Of a stretch of 64,000 nucleotides of DNA, positions 9,965 to 63,876 are shown one piece after another (the stretch's first letter is position 1; every line of letters begins with the position of its first letter). The notes under the pieces are model-generated. The model searched no databases. It was given only the letters and a program-made list of their open reading frames with translations, and was not told the DNA's origin. A program made the translations under genes and the position numbers. This DNA comes from Eledone cirrhosa (Eukaryota), in NCBI GenBank assembly GCA_964016885.1, contig OZ024741.1, forward strand, positions 174,282,001 through 174,346,000. Reading direction: 5' to 3'.

Positions 9965-10350
9965 GTAACAATTTATAGGTGTTGGCCCTAAAGAGGGCCT
10001 TTGAACGTTCACTTTGAAATATCTCTGCGGCGGTGCTGCCAGCAAAGACGAATCCGATGGTAACAATTTAAAGTTGGTGGCCCTAAAGAGGGCCTTGGAT
10101 CATTCACTCTTAAAAGTCTCAGCGGCGGTGCTGCCAGCAAAGATGAATCCGATGATAACAATTTAAAGTTGGTGGCCCTGAAGAGGACCTTTTAACGTTC
10201 ACTTTGAAATATCTCAGCGGTGGTGCTGCCAGCAAAGATGAATCCGATGGTAACAATTTAAACTTGGTGGCCCTGAAGAGGGCCTTGGATCGTTCACTCT
10301 TAAAAGTCCCAGCGGCAGAGCTGTCAGCAAAGACGACTCCGATTAGAGGT
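9965..10350 (+). repeat. 95 bp x4 tandem repeat inside the Helitron
   Basis: Unit starts at 9965, 10060, 10155, 10250. Confidence 0.9.
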
Positions 10351-16033: not shown

Positions 16034-16121
16034 TACATAAAAATATATGTGTTAGGTGATTCCGAAGAGAAAGCAAAGGAAAAAACGAGTGTTCTATGTA
16101 TAGAACAGAGCATTAAAAATA

Positions 16122-16719
16122 TATAAATATTTCGTATCTCCAAAGAAATACGGTTTTAGGAAGCCGTAGCTATGCAAACACCGGGGGGGGGGGGCTAACG
16201 CCCTCTGGTGATGTCCAGCAGAAAAAGACGCTTGTCCCCCCTGCTTCTGCTGGACATCACCAGAGGGCGTTAGCCCCCCCCCCCCCGGTATTTGCATAGC
16301 TACAGCTTCCTAAAACCGTATTTCTTTAGAGATACAAAATATTTATACATATTGTATAAAGCTATGCTTGAAGCAAAATCCTATTTCTTTTCTATTATAA
16401 GTTGAGCCAACTTATGCAGCTTCGTATGCAAATGAGATTAATCACCTCAGTTACACAGACGAGAAAACTATGTATTCTCGCCTGTCTGCTAGTCCAGCAG
16501 TCGCAAGTGGTGGGAGGGACCGTCCTGATGATGGCCAATTAAGCCTGAAATGCATAGATGGTTGTCCCCGTTGCTTCTGCTGGACATCACCAGAGGGCGT
16601 TAGCCCCCTGGTGTTTGCATAGCTACGGCTTCCTAAAACCGTATTTCTTTGGAGATACGAAATATTTATACATATTGTATAAAGCTATGCTTGAAGCGAA
16701 ATCCTATTTCTTTTCTATA
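16122..16719 (+). mobile_element. Retrozyme-like non-coding tandem repeat (~330 bp unit) with 5' fold-back
   Basis: 16227-16395 is repeated at 16557-16719; 16122-16223 is an inverted copy; a hammerhead sits at the unit junction. Confidence 0.65.
16519..16562 (+). ncRNA. Minimal type I hammerhead ribozyme motif
   Basis: ACCGUC-CUGAUGA-U GGC CAAUUAA GCC U-GAAA-UGCA-UA|GAUGGU; palindromic UGCA in stem III. Confidence 0.75.
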
Positions 16720-16744
16720 TAAACATATTTTGTTGTTATGTGCT

Positions 16745-19397: not shown

Positions 19398-19459
19398 AGT
19401 TATATATATATATAATATGGGTAATATATATATATATATGTGGGTTATATATATATATA

Positions 19460-21680
19460 AGCGAATTAATAAGTAAGGCATGCAAGGAAGCCACAGACAT
19501 AGTCATCAATGTCCCCTCACCCAATGATCTCAAATTAAGACCTATAATAGCAGGCCCCGCTTGCGAAACCCACCGCCTTAGCAACTTCATTGATACCCTT
19601 GTCAAGCCTTTTCTCAAACACATCAAAAGCTATATAAGGGACGACCTAGATATGCTCATTCACCTCCTTAATATGCCCCTTTCTGAACAAACCCTACTAG
19701 TGACGTTCGATGTAGTCAACCTATACTCCAACATCCCCACAACCTAGGAATAGAAGCTATCCAATTCTGGCTGGATAATTACCACAATGAACTCCCACAA
19801 TGCATCAAAAAAGAATTTGTGATCGAGGGACTCAAATTTATCTTGGAGAACAATTACTTCGTTTTCAATAACAAATCCTACAGGCAGAAATCTGGGACCG
19901 CTATGGGAACGAAAACAGCCCCCACTTATGCCAACCAAGTCATGGGATACCTGGAAATCACCCTCTACACTAAAGTACTAAACAAATTTGGAAACACTCT
20001 CCACTTACACATAGTAAAGAACTGGAAGCGATATCTAGATGACTGCTTCATCCTTTGGCACGAAAACATCGAGAAACTTAAAGAATTTCACACCCTTATA
20101 AATGGGCTCAACACGAATATTAACTTTACGATGGAATACAGCCATCAACAACTCCCCTTCCTCGACATCCTCATTAAGATTCATAACAAAAAAATAGAAA
20201 CAGACATATACTACAAGCCCACAGACTCGAAGCAATATCTTCCTTTCAACTCTTGCCACCCTAGACACGTTAAAATTAATATTCCCTACAACTTAGCCAA
20301 TAAAATTAGTCTCCAATAAAAACACCTGTTACTTACGGCTACAAGAACTAAAGGACACACTCATAGGCAGGGACTACCCTGCATCACTAATTGACAATGG
20401 AATCCAACGTGCCCTAAAACTCAGTACCCAGGACCTTAGACACCCTAAAGTAAATCAACCGAAACTAAAAGCTCTTCCATACATCTCCACACACAACCCC
20501 TCAACAATGAGGCCTTTGACACCATCCTCCAGAACATCCCTGTATTGAAAAAGGACCATAGAATGAACCAAATTCTACGAACACACGATATCATAAAGAG
20601 CAAAAGACAATCCAAGTCAATGAAAAACATCTTAACACATGCCAAAGTACTGCCAACCACAACAACGAAACCCACAGTAAAAAAATGCGATAGACCCAAC
20701 TGTGGCATATGCATCAACCTAATAGAGGGTTCGGAATTCTATTTCAAAGAAGGACAACGTTTTATAGTAAAACACAATTTCACATACGCATCAGAAAATC
20801 TAATATATGTATTAACTTGCTCAGGTTGTCGAGAAATATACATAGGCCAGACCAAAAACAGCCTCCGCCAACGCATGACCGTCCATAGATCCCAAATTAA
20901 AATACGGGAATACAGGAAAATACCACTGAGTGAACACATTGATACCTGTGCCGCCCAAAATCATCCCACCTTTAGAATCTTTCCCCTCTACAAATTTAAA
21001 GATAATGCCACCCACACCCAGCGCATCAGCAAGGAATCTCACTTTAACAAATACGGACCCCGTCTAAACACTTCTCCCTAGGATGAACCCACAACATACA
21101 CACGTCAACATACATACCTACATCAGCATACATCCTACATACATCTCTATCCACATATACACACAATGACATACGTAAACACACATGTTCTATGGTGCAA
21201 CACAAATATACACAAATTTGCATACCTTTTGATGTCTATAGATATAAACGTGCCGACACACACACATGCATTGCACACTGATGGGCACATATATATCTGT
21301 ACACAAGTATTCCAATACGGCAGGGCCTAATGGATTCCCCTTGCAGTACGTACAATCTGGGCATTCACACACACCTTGGTGTTATGACAATACTATATAT
21401 AATTTCACCCCTTTTATTATTAATGTTTTTTGATGTTCTTTTGAGAGAATCGTTTTTTGCAAATTACTGAAAATATCGAATAATGTACACCATTTTTACC
21501 AGTATCACAAAAATACTGGTCCACCCACACACGCGTACACTAACATACAAACAGACATATACACACACACTTCTCCGTATAAGACAAGAGCTGAAAAATA
21601 TCTTTCAACATGTTAAAATATCCCCACACACGTACAGACACATTCCTACTGACCGAATCCCTCTACCACGAATCACTCTG

Positions 21681-21726
<46 letters not shown>

Positions 21727-22310
21727 TTATCTTAATAGACATCTGAACTGTTGACCTTTCAACATGACTGCAATTCACACACACATCCCTACTGACCATT
21801 ATCACAACAACGAACCTCTTTACTACACGCACGCACACACACACATATTTGTCTTAAAAGACTTATTTTTCAGTGACTTCTCAATCAGGCGAAAAAGGAC
21901 ACTCTTCGACAAACCTACATTTGGCGCAAAATCAATTTTTAACATTCACGTGACCTCTACTGACCAATCAAAATTGTTTTGACTTCAAGAATTTTTGCAA
22001 CACAAATTGGCGCGAAACTTATAGTACTCATTCACGTGACATTCAACAACCAGACAAATCTTAATACCTCTGGAGCCACTTTTTTCACATAAAACAGGTA
22101 GAATTTCCAAAACTGATCAGATTAGAGCAAACATCACGGGCGCTCTATCTCAAAATTATTTTTGAAAAGCATTAGAAATGCATAACCGGTAAAAACTTAA
22201 AACTAAAACTGAATACTAACCAATACTTATTACTAATTTTTACTTATTCCTAATTAAACTATTTTTCACTGGGAAAAATTTGTCAGCATTTTCTTTTCCT
22301 TTTACTAATA
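19460..22310 (+). mobile_element. Penelope-like element, Neptune-type (RT + GIY-YIG), 5'-truncated and frameshifted
   Basis: LRPIIAG, TFDVVNLYSNIP, YRQKSGTAMGTKTAPTYAN, WKRYLDDCF, PFLDI, DIYYKPTDS, linker CDRPNCGIC, IYVLTCSGCREIYIGQT; coding remnant 19460-21081. Confidence 0.9.
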
Positions 22311-23538: not shown

Positions 23539-24284
23539 ATAAACGGAAAAAATGAAATGAAATTTCATTTCTCACTCTTAGTACGTCTGTTACTTAAATA
23601 TAAGTATGTATACGTACATACATATATGTATACAGACGTACAGTAGTATGTATATATATATATACATACATGCACATATATATATATGTACGTATGGATT
23701 CACCAAACATTTATTATAATGCTCGATGTGTTTGTAAACAAACATCCCGAATTAAGCCGAACAGTGTCTAGCAACCATCGTTGCTCATTTGTTCAACACT
23801 GACAACGGAACGCTGTACTAGTTTCAAGCTTATTAGCTATCGTCAGCAACGTATACCTTCCTGCCAGATGACTGAACGTCTGAAAGTATATACTTTCCTT
23901 ATGCATATTAACGGCTGAGCAGCCTAATTTGCATATCGAGTGAGTTAATCGGCCGGGCGCACCGAAAACGATAAACGGAAAAAATGAAACGAAATTTCAT
24001 TTCTCAGTCTTAGTACGGCTGTTACTTAAATATAAGTATGTATACGTACATACATACAGACGTACAGTAGTATGTATATATATATACATACATGCACACA
24101 TATATATATATGTATGGTTGCTAGACACTGTACGTCTTAATTCGGGATGTTTGTTTACAAACACACCGAGCATTATAATAAATGTTCGGTGAATCCATAC
24201 GTACATATATATGTGTGCATGTATGTATATATATATACATACTACTGTACGTCTGTATACATATATGTATGTACGTATACATAC

Positions 24285-24315
<31 letters not shown>
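23539..24315 (-). mobile_element. Retrozyme-like non-coding repeat (~432 bp unit, partial tandem plus inversion)
   Basis: ATAAACGGAAAAAATGAA recurs at 23539 and 23971; 24115-24290 is an inverted piece; contains a hammerhead. Confidence 0.7.
23811..23851 (-). ncRNA. Minimal type I hammerhead ribozyme motif
   Basis: CGUUG-CUGACGA-U AGCU AAUA AGCU U-GAAA-CUAG-UA|CAGCG; all core positions intact. Confidence 0.85.
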
Positions 24316-24850
24316 CTAAGGCGGGTAAAATTCCCGAGATCCATGGACGAGTTCTCTCCAGCGGTCTCTGTCCCTCATTATCGCTGCCATATCCTGCATC
24401 TCCAACAGACCAGTGTCTGTCCTTACGGCATCAACATATGTTAACCTTGGTCTTCCTATTCCAGTGTCTCCATGTAGGGGCTCCCAAAGGAGCACTGAGT
24501 GCAATGTCAACTCTGGATGTCGGTGAGCATGTCCAGCCAACCTCAGTCTCCTCTGTGTCACTTTTGAGCTGACTTTTGGGATGCTCCCATACAGCTCTGA
24601 GTTTTTCATCCTCAGTGTATACTGATTAATGTTCAGAGCCATCCTCAGCATTCTCGTGTAGCACCCATCCACCATCTGAGTGAGTTTCTTGGTCAGTGTC
24701 CAAGTCTCAGACCCACACAGCAGCACAGACTCCACTACAGCAATGAAGAGGCGGATTTTCAGGTCTCTACGAAGGTCCGACTTCCACACCGATCTCAAGC
24801 TGTGGCACGCCGCCCAGGCCTTGCTCTTCCTCTCAACCACATCATCTTCC
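24316..24850 (-). mobile_element. RTE-clade LINE C-terminal fragment (second family)
   Basis: KIRLFIAVVESVLLCGSETWTL...RRLRLAGHAHRH...GRPRLTYVD; flanked by (TA)n. Confidence 0.85.
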
Positions 24851-26115
24851 GTATTATATATATTTTCATTTATATATATATATATACAGTAGAATGATCG
24901 AGAATCGGAATATCGGCCCACGAAATCACAATAAACAATATCTGACATGTGTGGCAGAGGGCTCAATAGTTTGGATAAACCAGAGCTATAACTATCGTTA
25001 AAATACCAACACACAGAGATCATGCCTAAAATCACCCGTGCAGCCAAAAAAGAACGACCAGGAAGATTCGGGTCACTCAAATAAAATATCAATAAATTAA
25101 TAAATTAAATGAAAGTATATAATTACATATTCGTGTATAAATATTATTGCATACACAAAACAAAATATAAACAAACGTATTTATTTCACGAAAGCACAGA
25201 CGGCTTATAGTCATTGTTACTGCCAATATGCCACCCAAAAACGTCCTAGCCTGGCCGCAAGATCAGATTTTCCAGAAGAAAAAATGTTACTAGAGCAACA
25301 GAGAGACTAAGCTTCCCGATTACCATCAACAAAGCTCATGGTCAAACCCTAAAAGTGGCTGGCCTTCATCTGGGAAAACCATGCTTCTCCCATGGTCAAT
25401 TATATGTAGGATGCTCTAGGGTGAGCTCGCCAAACAATCTCTTCATCTTTGCTCCCGAGGGCCGAACAAAAAATATTGTATACTCTGAGGCTCTAACAAT
25501 GTAATTTATGTATTTTCTGTTACTTGGAATTTCCATTATGGTTGTACAAATTATTGTAAAGTTTGTTAAAAAATTTGTTCTCTGTTCAACATTTATTGTT
25601 GTAACTATCAATTTTCTTTAACGTACTGGCTGAGAAAAGAAACCTACAATAAAAGAACATCTTAAAGTTTACCCAAGCCAAATGTGCATATATCGCAGCT
25701 ATTCATATGTTTTAAACATTAGATAACGATTGCTGATGTATATTGTACGACAGAATTAGCTGAAAAATATTTTGAATGAACAAATAAAAGAGATATAAAA
25801 GAGAGATGTTTGTTGGTTGGTTGGTTCCTTCGCATATCACACAAAAAAAAAGAAAAATGACAATTGGAAAGTATGTACAGGATTGGGATAAGAGTGTATC
25901 CAGGAAAGTTTATTGATATTACTTTTATAACACCAAAGAAGAAGAAAGACATACCATTTATGCTAACCAACCTGACTGCTATTTCTAGCAGGTTGGGAAT
26001 CAACCATAAGGGATTCTCTCTGCGAGTTCGTTGTCAGTGATGATCGTGTTTCGCGGCCTATGTCTCTGATTCTAACGGTGGTTTACACACACACACACAC
26101 GAACACTCACACAGG

Positions 26116-26147
<32 letters not shown>

Positions 26148-26149
<2 letters not shown>

Positions 26150-26689
26150 ATATAAGTATGTACACATACATATATGTATACAGACGTACAGTAGTATGTA
26201 TATATATATACATACATGCACACATATATATATGCACGTATGGATTCACCGAACATTTATTATAATGCTCGGTGTGTTTGTAAACAAACATCCCGTATCA
26301 AGCCGTAGCGTCTAGCAACCATCGTTGCTCGTTTGTTCAACACTGACAAAGGAACGCTGTACTAGTTTCAAGCTTATTAGCTATCATCAGCAACGTATAC
26401 CTTCCTGCCAGATTGTTGAACGTATATACTTACCTTATGCATATTAACGGCTGAGTAGCCCAATTTGCATATCGAGTGGGTTAATCGGCCGGGTGCACCG
26501 AAAACGATAAACAGAAAAAATGAAACAAAATTTCATTTCCCACTCTTAATATATATGTGTGCATGTATGTATATATATATACATACTACTGTACGTCTGT
26601 ATACATATATGTATGTACGTGTACATACTTATATTTAAGTAACAGCCGTACTAAGAGTGGGAAATGAAATTTCGTTTAATTTTTCCGTT

Positions 26690-26692
<3 letters not shown>
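26148..26692 (-). mobile_element. Second copy of the ~432 bp retrozyme-like repeat with terminal inversion
   Basis: Colinear with ~23600-24010; 26550-26692 is inverted. Confidence 0.7.
26355..26395 (-). ncRNA. Minimal type I hammerhead ribozyme motif
   Basis: Identical to 23811-23851 except CUGAUGA instead of CUGACGA (variable position 7). Confidence 0.85.
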
Positions 26693-27730: not shown

Positions 27731-27773
27731 GTCACTGAAGAGGTCACAGAATGTGTGACGAAAGAACTTTGAC
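27731..27773 (+). ncRNA. Minimal type I hammerhead-like motif
   Basis: GUCA-CUGAAGA-G GUCACA gaaug UGUGAC-GAAA-GAAC-UU|UGAC; lies in a dispersed repeat also found at 46300-46490. Confidence 0.65.
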
Positions 27774-28079: not shown

Positions 28080-29879
28080 TTCGTTTCTGAATTTGTTTAG
28101 CAAGATTCTTTAAATCCATCCCTAGAAATGTTTCTCTTAGAATCTCCCGCCTATCGTCCAACCAACAAACCTTCAAAGAACATGCCGAGTATTATGATGA
28201 TGCACTTAGGAAAGCCGGTCACCTAGATAATATAGAGTATATAGTCAATGATCACCAAAACACCCAAAATAAATCACATAGGAGTAGAAATAGCACAGAA
28301 TCACCACCATACATACACTACCGCAATAGACACAATAATAGTCGCACACCACCAAACAGAAGGCGATGTAAGGAGTATATCTGGTACAACCCGGTCTATA
28401 ACAAATCTATTAAAACCAATCTACCCTCAAAATTCTTTCGATTAGTTAGAAAACACTTTCCAACATCACATAAATATAATAAAATCTTAAACCCTAACAC
28501 CATCCGGCTTTCATATTCAACCGCCCCTAATATTGAACAACATATAAAAATGCTTAACGCAAAACGGTTGTATAAACGCCTTCCAACACATAACAATACA
28601 CGTAAAACATTAGCTATAACATCACAAAACAACAAACAACATCCTGTTCTACATAAGCAACCTCATCAACCCATCCATGGCAATACAACAACGCAAAATT
28701 GTAATTGCAACTGTGTCCAACCAGGAATGTGTCCGTTGAACAACCAGTGTCTTGAACGCAACATCGTATACAAATGTACTATCGAATCGGATAGACAGAA
28801 GTGGTACTATGTGGGATCTACAGCCACCTCCTTTAAATCACGCCTTTATAGACATCGTTATTCGATAAAACATGAAAACCAGCGTTATGTAACAACACTC
28901 GCAGACAAGGCTTGGCAGCTGCGTGAAAATAACCAACATTTTCACCTAAAATGGGATATAATAGCGACTGCCCCCCCATATTCCAATGGACAGGAATTTT
29001 GTAGATTATGTAATGTAGAATTATTTTGTATTATGAAATCCAAAAACATTTTATTAAATAACAGAATAGAGCGATCGTTATACTGTAACCATCGCTTAAA
29101 ATCTACATTTTCATATTATAAATACTACCAGGATTGAACGCCTGTCTCTATCCCCGTTTGATTGTCAAAATAGATATGAACATTCTTTATTAGTCTTAAT
29201 TCTATCAACTCTTCTATTATTTACCTTTTAATACAAACTGCTATAGATAAAATGAGATTTCTGATTTTTTGATTCAATTCCCTAGAGCAAATACCAGCTG
29301 ACCACTAGCATTGATGTTATTTAGTAGCAATCGAAATCTCCCCCTTCCCCAATTGACACTTTATGATTAATACTACTGCACCAAATGACCAGCCCTGTCC
29401 ACTGTCCAGTTGGTCAAGTAGAGATTAAAATCGGCACCCCCAAAATTCTTATTTAGATTTACTCATGGTATTCTCATTAAAAACCCATTATATACTTGTT
29501 TAGCAGTAAATTATTTTACCATCTGTCATATTCTATCCCCTCTGTTCCTTCCTCTTTTACTAATATAAATACTTCAATTTTTCTGATTTTATCCAGTTTA
29601 TCCAAAATCTCTGAAGAAGTGACAACTGATTATACATTTGCTATCGAATACTTGCTAACATTATATGATTACGCAAGCAGCGATACATAGGTATTCGGTC
29701 TGTTACAGAAACATATGTCAATACCTAATAAATTCCTTTTTTAACAAAAGCACTTTCATTTTATATTCATCCTTTCTACATTTCTCCGGAATATAATTTA
29801 TACTCGTTGAGCAAACCTGCACGTACGCTGTTCATCTCTAACGTAACGATATATTATCACTACATTATTGATAACCTGA

Positions 29880-29880
<1 letters not shown>
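28080..29880 (+). mobile_element. 5'-truncated Penelope-like element (Hydra-clade-like)
   Basis: IWYNP, CNCVQPGMCPLNNQCLERNIVYKC..YYVGST..FKSRLYRHR..CRLCNVE..LLN..CNHR (stop at 29137); 3' hammerhead and AATAAA. Confidence 0.85.
29607..29723 (+). ncRNA. Hammerhead-like motif with long stem II (stem I degenerate)
   Basis: CUGAAGA at 29611; stem II GUGACA/UGUUAC enclosing CGAAUAC/GUAUUCG; GAAA-CAUAUG-UC. Confidence 0.55.
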
Positions 29881-29911
<31 letters not shown>

Positions 29912-46400: not shown

Positions 46401-46443
46401 GTCAAAGTTCTTTCGTCACACATTCTGTGACCTCTTCAGTGAC
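46401..46443 (-). ncRNA. Hammerhead-like motif, copy of 27731-27773
   Basis: Exact reverse complement of 27731-27773. Confidence 0.65.
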
Positions 46444-52439: not shown

Positions 52440-52960
52440 ATACTTTTTTTTTTTCATTTTTATCCTCCTTATATTTTATTTTATTCTTACTCTTATATCT
52501 TATTATAGTGAAATCTTCCCCATGCCTTATTACACATTATTAACTATAGATTATTATTATTCTTATTCCATTTCTAATTACCTCATGTACTTTCTCCTCC
52601 GTTTTATATATATTATATGCCCTTTGTGTGTGTGTAGCCTCTGCACACCCTCTGCACCCTACTATCAATGCCACCCCATCTATGGCTCCACTAACCACTC
52701 GACTCCCGGGAATGAATATGACCACAGCTAGTAAACAAGGACCCACACCCAACCCTCCCGCACCTAAATTAGACTTATTGGCCCCTGCTTTTGCTCTTTA
52801 CTCTCTTTATTCTTTGTTCTTGAATGTTTGGTTGGTAGAGTCCATAACACCAATCAAACCCCTTTTATAGCTCTGACGAATCCTACGGTTACGTAAGGAA
52901 GAAACATTGTAAGCCAATAAAAAATCTTTGATGCTGTAGACGCTCTTCTGTTCTTTATCA
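52440..52960 (+). mobile_element. Probable solo PLE pseudo-LTR
   Basis: Pyrimidine-rich stretch between (TA)n runs, ending with a hammerhead and AATAAA. Confidence 0.5.
52870..52914 (+). ncRNA. Type I hammerhead-like motif (short stem I)
   Basis: GCU-CUGACGA-A UCC UACG guua CGUA a GGA A-GAAA-CAUUG-UA|AGC. Confidence 0.6.
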
Positions 52961-63667: not shown

Positions 63668-63876
63668 AGATATAAAGGAATATATACTGATGATATCAAT
63701 TGAGAAACTGCTAGTATTTAGTAAGAAGATATATTTACTTTATTATGGTAAATTAAAAATTCCTAATTTTAAATTATATACAGTATATCTTCTTACAATT
63801 AAAGTGTTCTATAAACATGTACTAAATACCAGCAATTTCTCAATTGATATTATTGGTATTTAATCCTTTCTATATC
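63668..63876. repeat. Degenerate fold-back
   Basis: 63668-63720 is approximately the reverse complement of 63822-63876. Confidence 0.65.

Follow-up and report, generated by a model that had tools for sequence, protein, structure and literature searches.

Hammerhead-bearing insertions in the window

A short non-coding repeat carrying a predicted hammerhead ribozyme lies twice within a 64,000-nt stretch of the genome of the octopus Eledone cirrhosa (NCBI GenBank assembly GCA_964016885.1, contig OZ024741.1, positions 174,282,001 to 174,346,000 of the forward strand), hereafter referred to as the window. A preliminary description of this DNA proposed that the repeat belongs to a family of retrozymes mobilised by the neighbouring Penelope-like elements (PLEs). 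Movement by PLE machinery is well supported by the two-ended insertion pairs described below and by the non-autonomy of the unit, while the neighbouring PLEs are unsupported as its partners.

The repeat unit is ~432 nt long and has no open reading frame (ORF), as first described. It starts at 23539 and again at 23971, a period of 432, and the longest Met-initiated frame in a trimer of the unit, which runs through the TA-rich part, is 51 aa. Units elsewhere in the family range from 420 to 433 nt, with a GC content of 35-39%. Position 1 of the RNA is taken here as the first base past the predicted ribozyme cut (window 23815), and ribozyme sense is the minus strand for the main arms of both insertions. 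Insertion 1 consists of a long arm on the minus strand (23539..24114), which spans 1.33 units (RNA 126-432, then 1-277) and has its 3' end at 23539, the fixed end referred to below as 'b', and an inverted, 5'-truncated arm on the plus strand (24114..24292, RNA 38-220), which finishes at the second fixed end, 'a', and is followed by (TA)n to ~24316. The main arm of insertion 2 (26149..26548, minus strand) is slightly less than one unit, with its 3' end at 26149 being end 'a' and lying beside (TA)n, and its inverted arm (26549..26692, plus strand, RNA ~131-277) finishes at end 'b' and again runs into (TA)n. Both insertions are mixed (a+b) pairs. An inverted arm and TA borders are present at both, as was reported, but the partial tandem arrangement attributed to the two copies holds for insertion 1 only, and the 432 period is visible once within the window, the main arm of insertion 2 being shorter than a unit. 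Over 307 aligned bases, the two copies differ by 20 mismatches and 3 gaps. A 59-nt 'tail' between both fixed 3' ends (23539..23597, minus strand, RNA 219-277) contains an 8-bp hairpin and a U-rich tract, and a TA-rich self-complementary segment covers 23590..23698 (minus strand, RNA ~118-226).

The hammerhead motif was found on the minus strand at 23846-23816 and 26390-26360 in the form first quoted, with the two copies differing at position 7 only. In insertion 1 the core (23816..23846) has its predicted cut between 23816 and 23815, and the whole ribozyme domain spans 23799..23867 on the minus strand, with helix I-A formed by 23851-23847 and 23815-23811, and helix I-B by 23867-23856 and 23808-23799. 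The core of insertion 2 (26360..26390, minus strand) carries U at position 7 and would be cut between 26360 and 26359. The core is composed of CUGACGA, a U.U pair, a 4-bp helix II with a 4-nt loop, GAAA and a palindromic helix III, ACUAGU; helix I has 5-6 bp beside the core, then an internal loop and a further 10-bp helix. Cleavage is predicted after GUA (GUA|CAGCG) from the hammerhead consensus. By its sequence and pairing the ribozyme is a canonical metazoan type I hammerhead, and the label 'minimal' given to it earlier does not suit the 4-bp helix II on a U.U pair or the extended helix I with its internal loop. The minimal hammerheads of PLE pseudo-long terminal repeats (pseudo-LTRs) share with it the type I topology, a palindromic helix III region and a predicted dimeric action, but are marked, in the parts of the source covered, by an additional base following A9, a G10.1-C11.1 pair, a helix II that is long and a helix I that is short (Cervera & de la Pena 2014, PMC4209133), none of which is seen in the ribozyme of the 432-nt unit. 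Palindromes in helix III have been described as permitting dimeric cleavage (PMC4209133), and ACUAGU is predicted to be too tight for a stable monomer, yet capable of pairing two ribozymes through a 6-bp duplex. Since each window insertion carries one ribozyme, neither alone could release a unit-length RNA.

A search of Rfam gave no hammerhead match at the gathering score or at E<=10, and its miRNA matches were rejected as noise from the TA-repeat segment. Folding of the unit as a circle gave z-scores of -5 to -10, which were given no weight, since base composition alone makes the TA-rich segment self-complementary.

Family size and fixed 3' ends

The family suggested by the two window copies is real and far larger than two. 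Across the 3.0-Gb genome the 31-nt core has 10,697 exact matches (0 for a reversed-pattern control), about one core per 280 kb, and a 19-mer from RNA 92-110 has 19,536. The 40 best copies, leaving out the window copy itself, are 95-98% identical to it, and older subfamilies are ~82-88% identical. For a census we took the first 100 matches of the 19-mer on one contig (C1, 1.6-24.2 Mb), which fall in 56 loci; this 19-mer lies outside the ribozyme, and selection on the ribozyme was thereby avoided. More than one unit is present in 40 of the 100 segments and more than two in 6, with the longest array reaching 7.5 units. Nine same-strand arrays hold 22 of the first 100 exact cores; with at least two ribozymes per locus, these are potential source loci. 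Neither window insertion holds two same-strand ribozymes, unlike some of these family loci.

The 3' ends of the copies are fixed, while their 5' ends are scattered over the whole unit. In 82 of the 100 census segments the 3' end lies at RNA 211-221 or 265-277, and in a filtered set, from which TA-only and <80% matches were dropped, 81 of 94 arm ends lie at RNA 209-223 or 263-279, giving two fixed sites at ~218 and 277, 59 nt apart. The 3' flank is AT-rich at 67 of these 81 canonical ends, mostly (TA)n, and target duplications of 13 bp (L009) and 9 bp (L095) were found at two non-microsatellite sites. The 56 census loci contain 28 head-to-head pairs, of which 22 are a+b, none a+a, none b+b, and 6 involve a non-canonical end. 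Every pair with both ends canonical hence has one of each kind (22/22, two of them being segmental duplicates in L184). In a separate best-hit set, 10 of 16 pairs were a+b and 2 of 16 a+a.

The purified protein of a PLE, PAc (Poseidon of Anolis), has been shown to nick AT-rich DNA on both strands and to begin cDNA synthesis from two positions within the RNA, between which the genomic tail lies (Frangieh et al. 2024, PMC11167929). Two fixed ends, one per arm, match this two-start tail shown in vitro. As in PAc, the tail lies downstream of a hammerhead, the targets are AT-rich and both strands are used, but PAc is autonomous with its start sites inside its ORF (PMC11167929), whereas the sites here are in non-coding sequence. 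The tail of 59 nt is longer than the 30-40 bp usually cited, and lies 218-277 nt past the cut. Partial tandems, inverted arms and tails are PLE hallmarks (Craig et al. 2021, PMC8557442), and for Hydra-clade PLEs the same source describes (TA)n targeting, partial tandems and an inverted 5'-truncated arm, as here. A preference for microsatellites or (TA)n is shared by Neptune and Naiad elements (PMC8557442), and the target therefore does not single out the Hydra clade. The unit itself is without the reverse transcriptase (RT) plus GIY-YIG ORF of an autonomous PLE. We conclude that the 432-nt family is almost certainly a non-autonomous unit mobilised in the manner of PLEs and, by what DNA can reveal, that it is likely to be a non-LTR retrozyme moved in trans by a PLE protein.

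The same pattern can be followed in a retroelement of the same genome that encodes RT. The window holds a 5'-truncated copy (28106..29885, plus strand) of a young Hydra-type PLE, here called PLE-A, which has two fixed 3' ends ~108 nt apart. Of 9 PLE-A loci with TA at the end of each arm, 8 combine a long end with a short one. Intact 781-aa ORFs are present elsewhere in the genome (L092 and L093 among the loci), many copies are 99-100% identical, and the RWK, DKT and CxCX5C marks of the Hydra clade are all borne; PLE-A is a candidate source of protein for the retrozyme. Towards the 3' end of PLE-A is a hammerhead-like core interrupted by an ~85-nt helix II region (from ~29611), with a weak helix I. 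Public homologues of PLE-A (P0001-P0045) are mostly on single contigs of ~2.2-3.4 kb, near the length of the element, and are possibly unit-length (circular?) PLE transcripts or collapsed repeats.

A second hammerhead repeat family, with a 323-nt unit, is represented at 16116..16722 (plus strand, core 16525-16556) by a partial tandem with an inverted arm. It has 635 exact cores in the genome, a helix III palindrome of AUGCAU and a U.U or A-U pair at the base of helix II. Its two ends are ~46 nt apart, and among 24 pairs 16 are a+b and 1 is b+b, the query having favoured one end. The 323-nt and 432-nt families can be aligned over the ribozyme only, and their helix III palindromes differ.

Ribozyme conservation and template continuity

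Conservation of the ribozyme beyond its flanks had been read from the two window copies, but the probability of at most one difference in 41 nt is 0.14, which is not significant alone. The family is more informative. None of the 12 catalytic positions has a subfamily variant, and the common variants of the ribozyme are confined to position 7, loop II, two outer-helix positions and one helix I pair, which stays paired in 83 of 86 copies (U.G in 59, A-U in 12, G.U in 11, U-A in 1). Among 44 aligned ribozymes 94.8% of cells pair. In contigs of four public runs, one of which may be the genome's own sample, the 31-nt core varies at loop II and position 7 only in the variant rows shown. A signature of A-to-I editing in the copies was unsupported (A>G 40 vs T>C 26, P = 0.08). 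Together, the sequences provide moderate evidence that the ribozyme is functional in source lineages.

The template from which the arms were copied was continuous across the predicted cut. Priming at 218 or 277 on a linear monomer that had been cut would give arms ending at position 1, yet 60 of the 63 arms that reach the cut pass it, which points to either a circle or an uncut multimer. Genome-wide, the junction of one subfamily is intact in 1,895 cases, and in 7 two foreign bases precede position 1; 5 of these 7 are real, where random truncation at a rate of 1 per 459 nt would be expected to yield ~2. A pile-up of 5' ends at the cut site was rejected, as there is at most this slight excess (5 vs ~2), confounded by microhomology. 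One copy with its 5' end at the predicted cut site (L125) abuts an antisense tRNA-like sequence, read by eye. The sites that vary between subfamilies differ at 6.4% between arms of one locus and 2.7% between tandem units, compared with 37.9% between loci, which fits both arms being copied from one template. The L179 array has an A-B-A-B-A pattern with a chimeric unit; a dimeric circle was considered as its cause and rejected in favour of later tandem duplication.

Proposed cycle and competing explanations

If the retrozyme reading is correct, a minority of loci, those with at least two same-strand ribozymes, would be transcribed, and cleavage would follow the pairing of two ribozymes via the helix III palindrome, so that a monomer, with its single ribozyme, would be left mostly uncut. 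A host ligase would then close the ends into a circle. A PLE RT/GIY-YIG protein would nick (TA)n or AT-rich DNA on each strand, and cDNA would be primed from each nick on the same template, at site a from one and at site b from the other. Each cDNA would run back across the ligated junction and stop at random, and the 5' ends would be joined to give an inverted pair. Cleavage followed by re-ligation is the step that would best reconcile a ribozyme that matters with a template continuous at the cut. We regard the cycle in full, with its active ribozyme and its circle, as probable, less firmly than PLE-type movement itself.

A number of observations weigh against this cycle. In the parts of the in vitro study covered, mutating the ribozyme of PAc left insertion normal, and the RNA chiefly used as substrate was unprocessed (PMC11167929), and in the parts covered of a study of Xenopus retrozymes 1 of 9 dimers cleaved in vitro (Li et al. 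2026, bioRxiv 10.64898/2026.07.22.740005). The local fold of the ribozyme is no stabler than shuffles (z -0.71), and covariation was seen at one pair only in the 44 aligned ribozymes. Subfamily variants are only modestly sparser in the ribozyme than in the flanks (5/69 vs 42/254 positions, one-sided P = 0.034), collapsing indels brings the 42 flank variants down to 26 events, and the rate of rare variants is nearly equal in both (1.8-2.5%), the last being as expected of decay after insertion. Subfamily variants of the ribozyme fall only at tolerated sites and one compensated pair, but its overall excess of conservation is weak. The two arms of L189 share 12 private changes, including a C-G at the helix II base, changes in helix III and in the cut site, and copying hence still took place with an altered ribozyme. 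Mosaic insertions were found at variable sites (L161, 4/12; L183, 4/41), L200, L179 and L184 contribute most to the pooled figures for similarity between arms, and similar arms could also have arisen by gene conversion. Long arrays do not prove rolling, and are best explained in part as later duplications. Finally, among ~six PLE ends compared, no sequence-sharing partner PLE was found, in a genome that holds 73,217 PLE candidates.

Much of this would also follow if the family were a non-autonomous PLE derivative copied from uncut, linear read-through of genomic tandems, with a hammerhead that is slow, protein-assisted or vestigial and no need of a circle. Such a template would cross the cut site equally well, and the indifference of PAc insertion in vitro to hammerhead mutation, the weak excess conservation of the ribozyme, the mosaic arms and the altered core of L189 all sit comfortably with it. 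It accounts less well for the finding that every common ribozyme variant is on a tolerated or compensated position, or for the 323-nt family, otherwise unalignable, which keeps the architecture with a different helix III palindrome. Most loci also have fewer than two units, and linear sources of this kind should transmit their own 5' junction; no recurring flank was evident at 84 free 5' ends, bar near-by duplicates and common repeats, although no formal test was applied. We consider linear read-through unlikely.

The copies might instead be ordinary pseudo-LTR fragments left by 5' truncation of an autonomous PLE. All of the insertion marks are PLE-like, and 24 of 57 Xenopus retrozyme families are homologous to known transposable elements, nearly all of them PLE ends, in the parts of that study covered (Li et al. 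2026, bioRxiv 10.64898/2026.07.22.740005). The preliminary description held that the unit would then always adjoin a PLE ORF. It does not: across 116 loci, a same-strand PLE ORF was found <=900 nt from only 2 of 84 free 5' ends, using a small protein library with which a divergent ORF, e.g. of Naiad type, could be missed. One of the two (L064) had been picked by a PLE search. At the other (L014) a PLE ORF of the same orientation ends 150 nt upstream, and the PLE end meets the unit at RNA position 1, but the join is a 4-nt microhomology inside the end of another family, whose other copies continue with unrelated sequence, and L014 was set aside as a pointer to a partner. Arms longer than one unit (40 of the 100 census segments) moreover continue into a further unit copy and not into an ORF. 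The pseudo-LTR explanation is largely refuted, and we give it very little credence.

Equally improbable is that the hammerhead-like motif is incidental to a satellite or to some DNA-level element (tandem duplication, MITE or Helitron-like), for although some long arrays grew after insertion (L179, L200, L184) and the inverted arms superficially resemble terminal inverted repeats, the copies are dispersed with scattered 5' ends, the two ends of a pair are different unit positions and the pattern is that of PLE-A, so that this reading is refuted for dispersal and holds only for the secondary growth of a few arrays.

With regard to the mobiliser of the proposed retrozyme, the PLE ends compared were those of PLE-A, PLE-B, PLE-C, a Neptune-like remnant and two Hydra-like remnants, and none resembles the unit above shuffled controls; the neighbouring PLEs thus gain no support from similarity to it. 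A pattern search with variant cores gave 28 matches, all of them mutated copies of the 432-nt family or motifs without a visible helix I, and no PLE partner. A mixed PLE/retrozyme insertion at L095/L060 was also rejected, as the copy there sits inside a PLE ORF and has a target duplication of 9 bp. This copy in L095 (4388-5261) is of an older subfamily, and the composite was later duplicated in inverted orientation, as if retrotransposed with its host PLE.

Other PLE-related features were seen in passing. At the end of PLE-B (L202-L220), a hammerhead-like motif precedes the first fixed 3' end by ~60 nt; its core is of the U3-A8 variant and its helix III is palindromic. In the window, two copies of a minimal-type hammerhead-like motif with an extra base after A9 and a 6-bp helix II, at 27735-27770 (plus strand) and 46404-46439 (minus strand), are probably ends of another PLE family, and single hammerhead-like motifs at 52873-52911 and 63687-63716 are probably decayed PLE ends. 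A broken PLE at 19450-22310 has RT and GIY-YIG matches, a CxxxxCxxC linker (Neptune-like by motif) and a TA end, with no similarity to the unit. A 95-bp tandem at 9965-10343 has four copies, two with a CUGAAGA box, and no complete hammerhead was seen in it. At 25319-25501 a 61-aa frame, without a match in Pfam, resembles what we take to be the C-terminal motifs of Pif1/Helitron helicases.

Relation to known retrozymes and implications

Metazoan non-LTR retrozymes, described in coral, the mussel Mytilus and axolotl, are likewise non-coding tandem units of a few hundred bp, low in GC, with a canonical type I hammerhead and thousands of copies (Cervera & de la Pena 2020, PMC7229834). In the axolotl ribozyme HHR_Amex2, helix II likewise stands on a U.U pair, together with a helix III of 2 bp (PMC7229834). 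The present unit slightly exceeds the 170-400 nt cited for invertebrates (PMC7229834), and its copies are mostly arms of 0.3-1.8 units in inverted pairs. Mobilisation by PLEs was proposed in the same source from co-occurrence, and fixed two-site ends are not described in the parts of it covered (PMC7229834). Retrozymes have also been argued to be non-autonomous PLE derivatives elsewhere (PMC7761336). Li, Clavereau & Pollet 2026 (bioRxiv 10.64898/2026.07.22.740005) likewise conclude that retrozymes depend on PLEs; their basis, in the parts covered, is co-distribution and pseudo-LTR homology in 35 genomes with no mollusc among them, whereas ours is the anatomy of insertions, a homologous pseudo-LTR not having been found. 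MRC1, a non-autonomous Chlamys element, is comparable in being an ORF-less PLE derivative that forms head-to-tail insertions (PMC8557442), but elements of its type generally resemble their partner at the 3' end, and among the ~six PLE ends no such partner was found for the 432-nt unit. The literature searched contained no cephalopod retrozyme and no fixed two-site retrozyme ends; key supplements and Repbase/Dfam were outside this search, and the family may be catalogued there. On this basis it is a new, very abundant family within a known class.

Dependence of retrozymes on PLEs had been proposed from co-occurrence and partial homology, and to this a direct genomic signature of two starts, borne by thousands of insertions, is now added, with a near-strict rule of one of each in paired arms. 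A tentative generalisation, which we hold somewhat doubtful, is that retrozymes may be trans-substrates of PLE proteins with no homology needed, that one circle may offer two priming sites to a PLE dimer, strictly one per nicked strand, and that at least two unrelated hammerhead circles may have converged on this arrangement. The questions of which protein mobilises the family, whether a circle is the template and what role the hammerhead plays can be put to the existing in vitro PLE assay, since the start sites on the 430-nt template are mapped and the genome also holds young PLEs with intact ORFs. If true, the generalisation would provide the first direct handle on the mobiliser of animal retrozymes, and on the RNA feature that defines a PLE start site.

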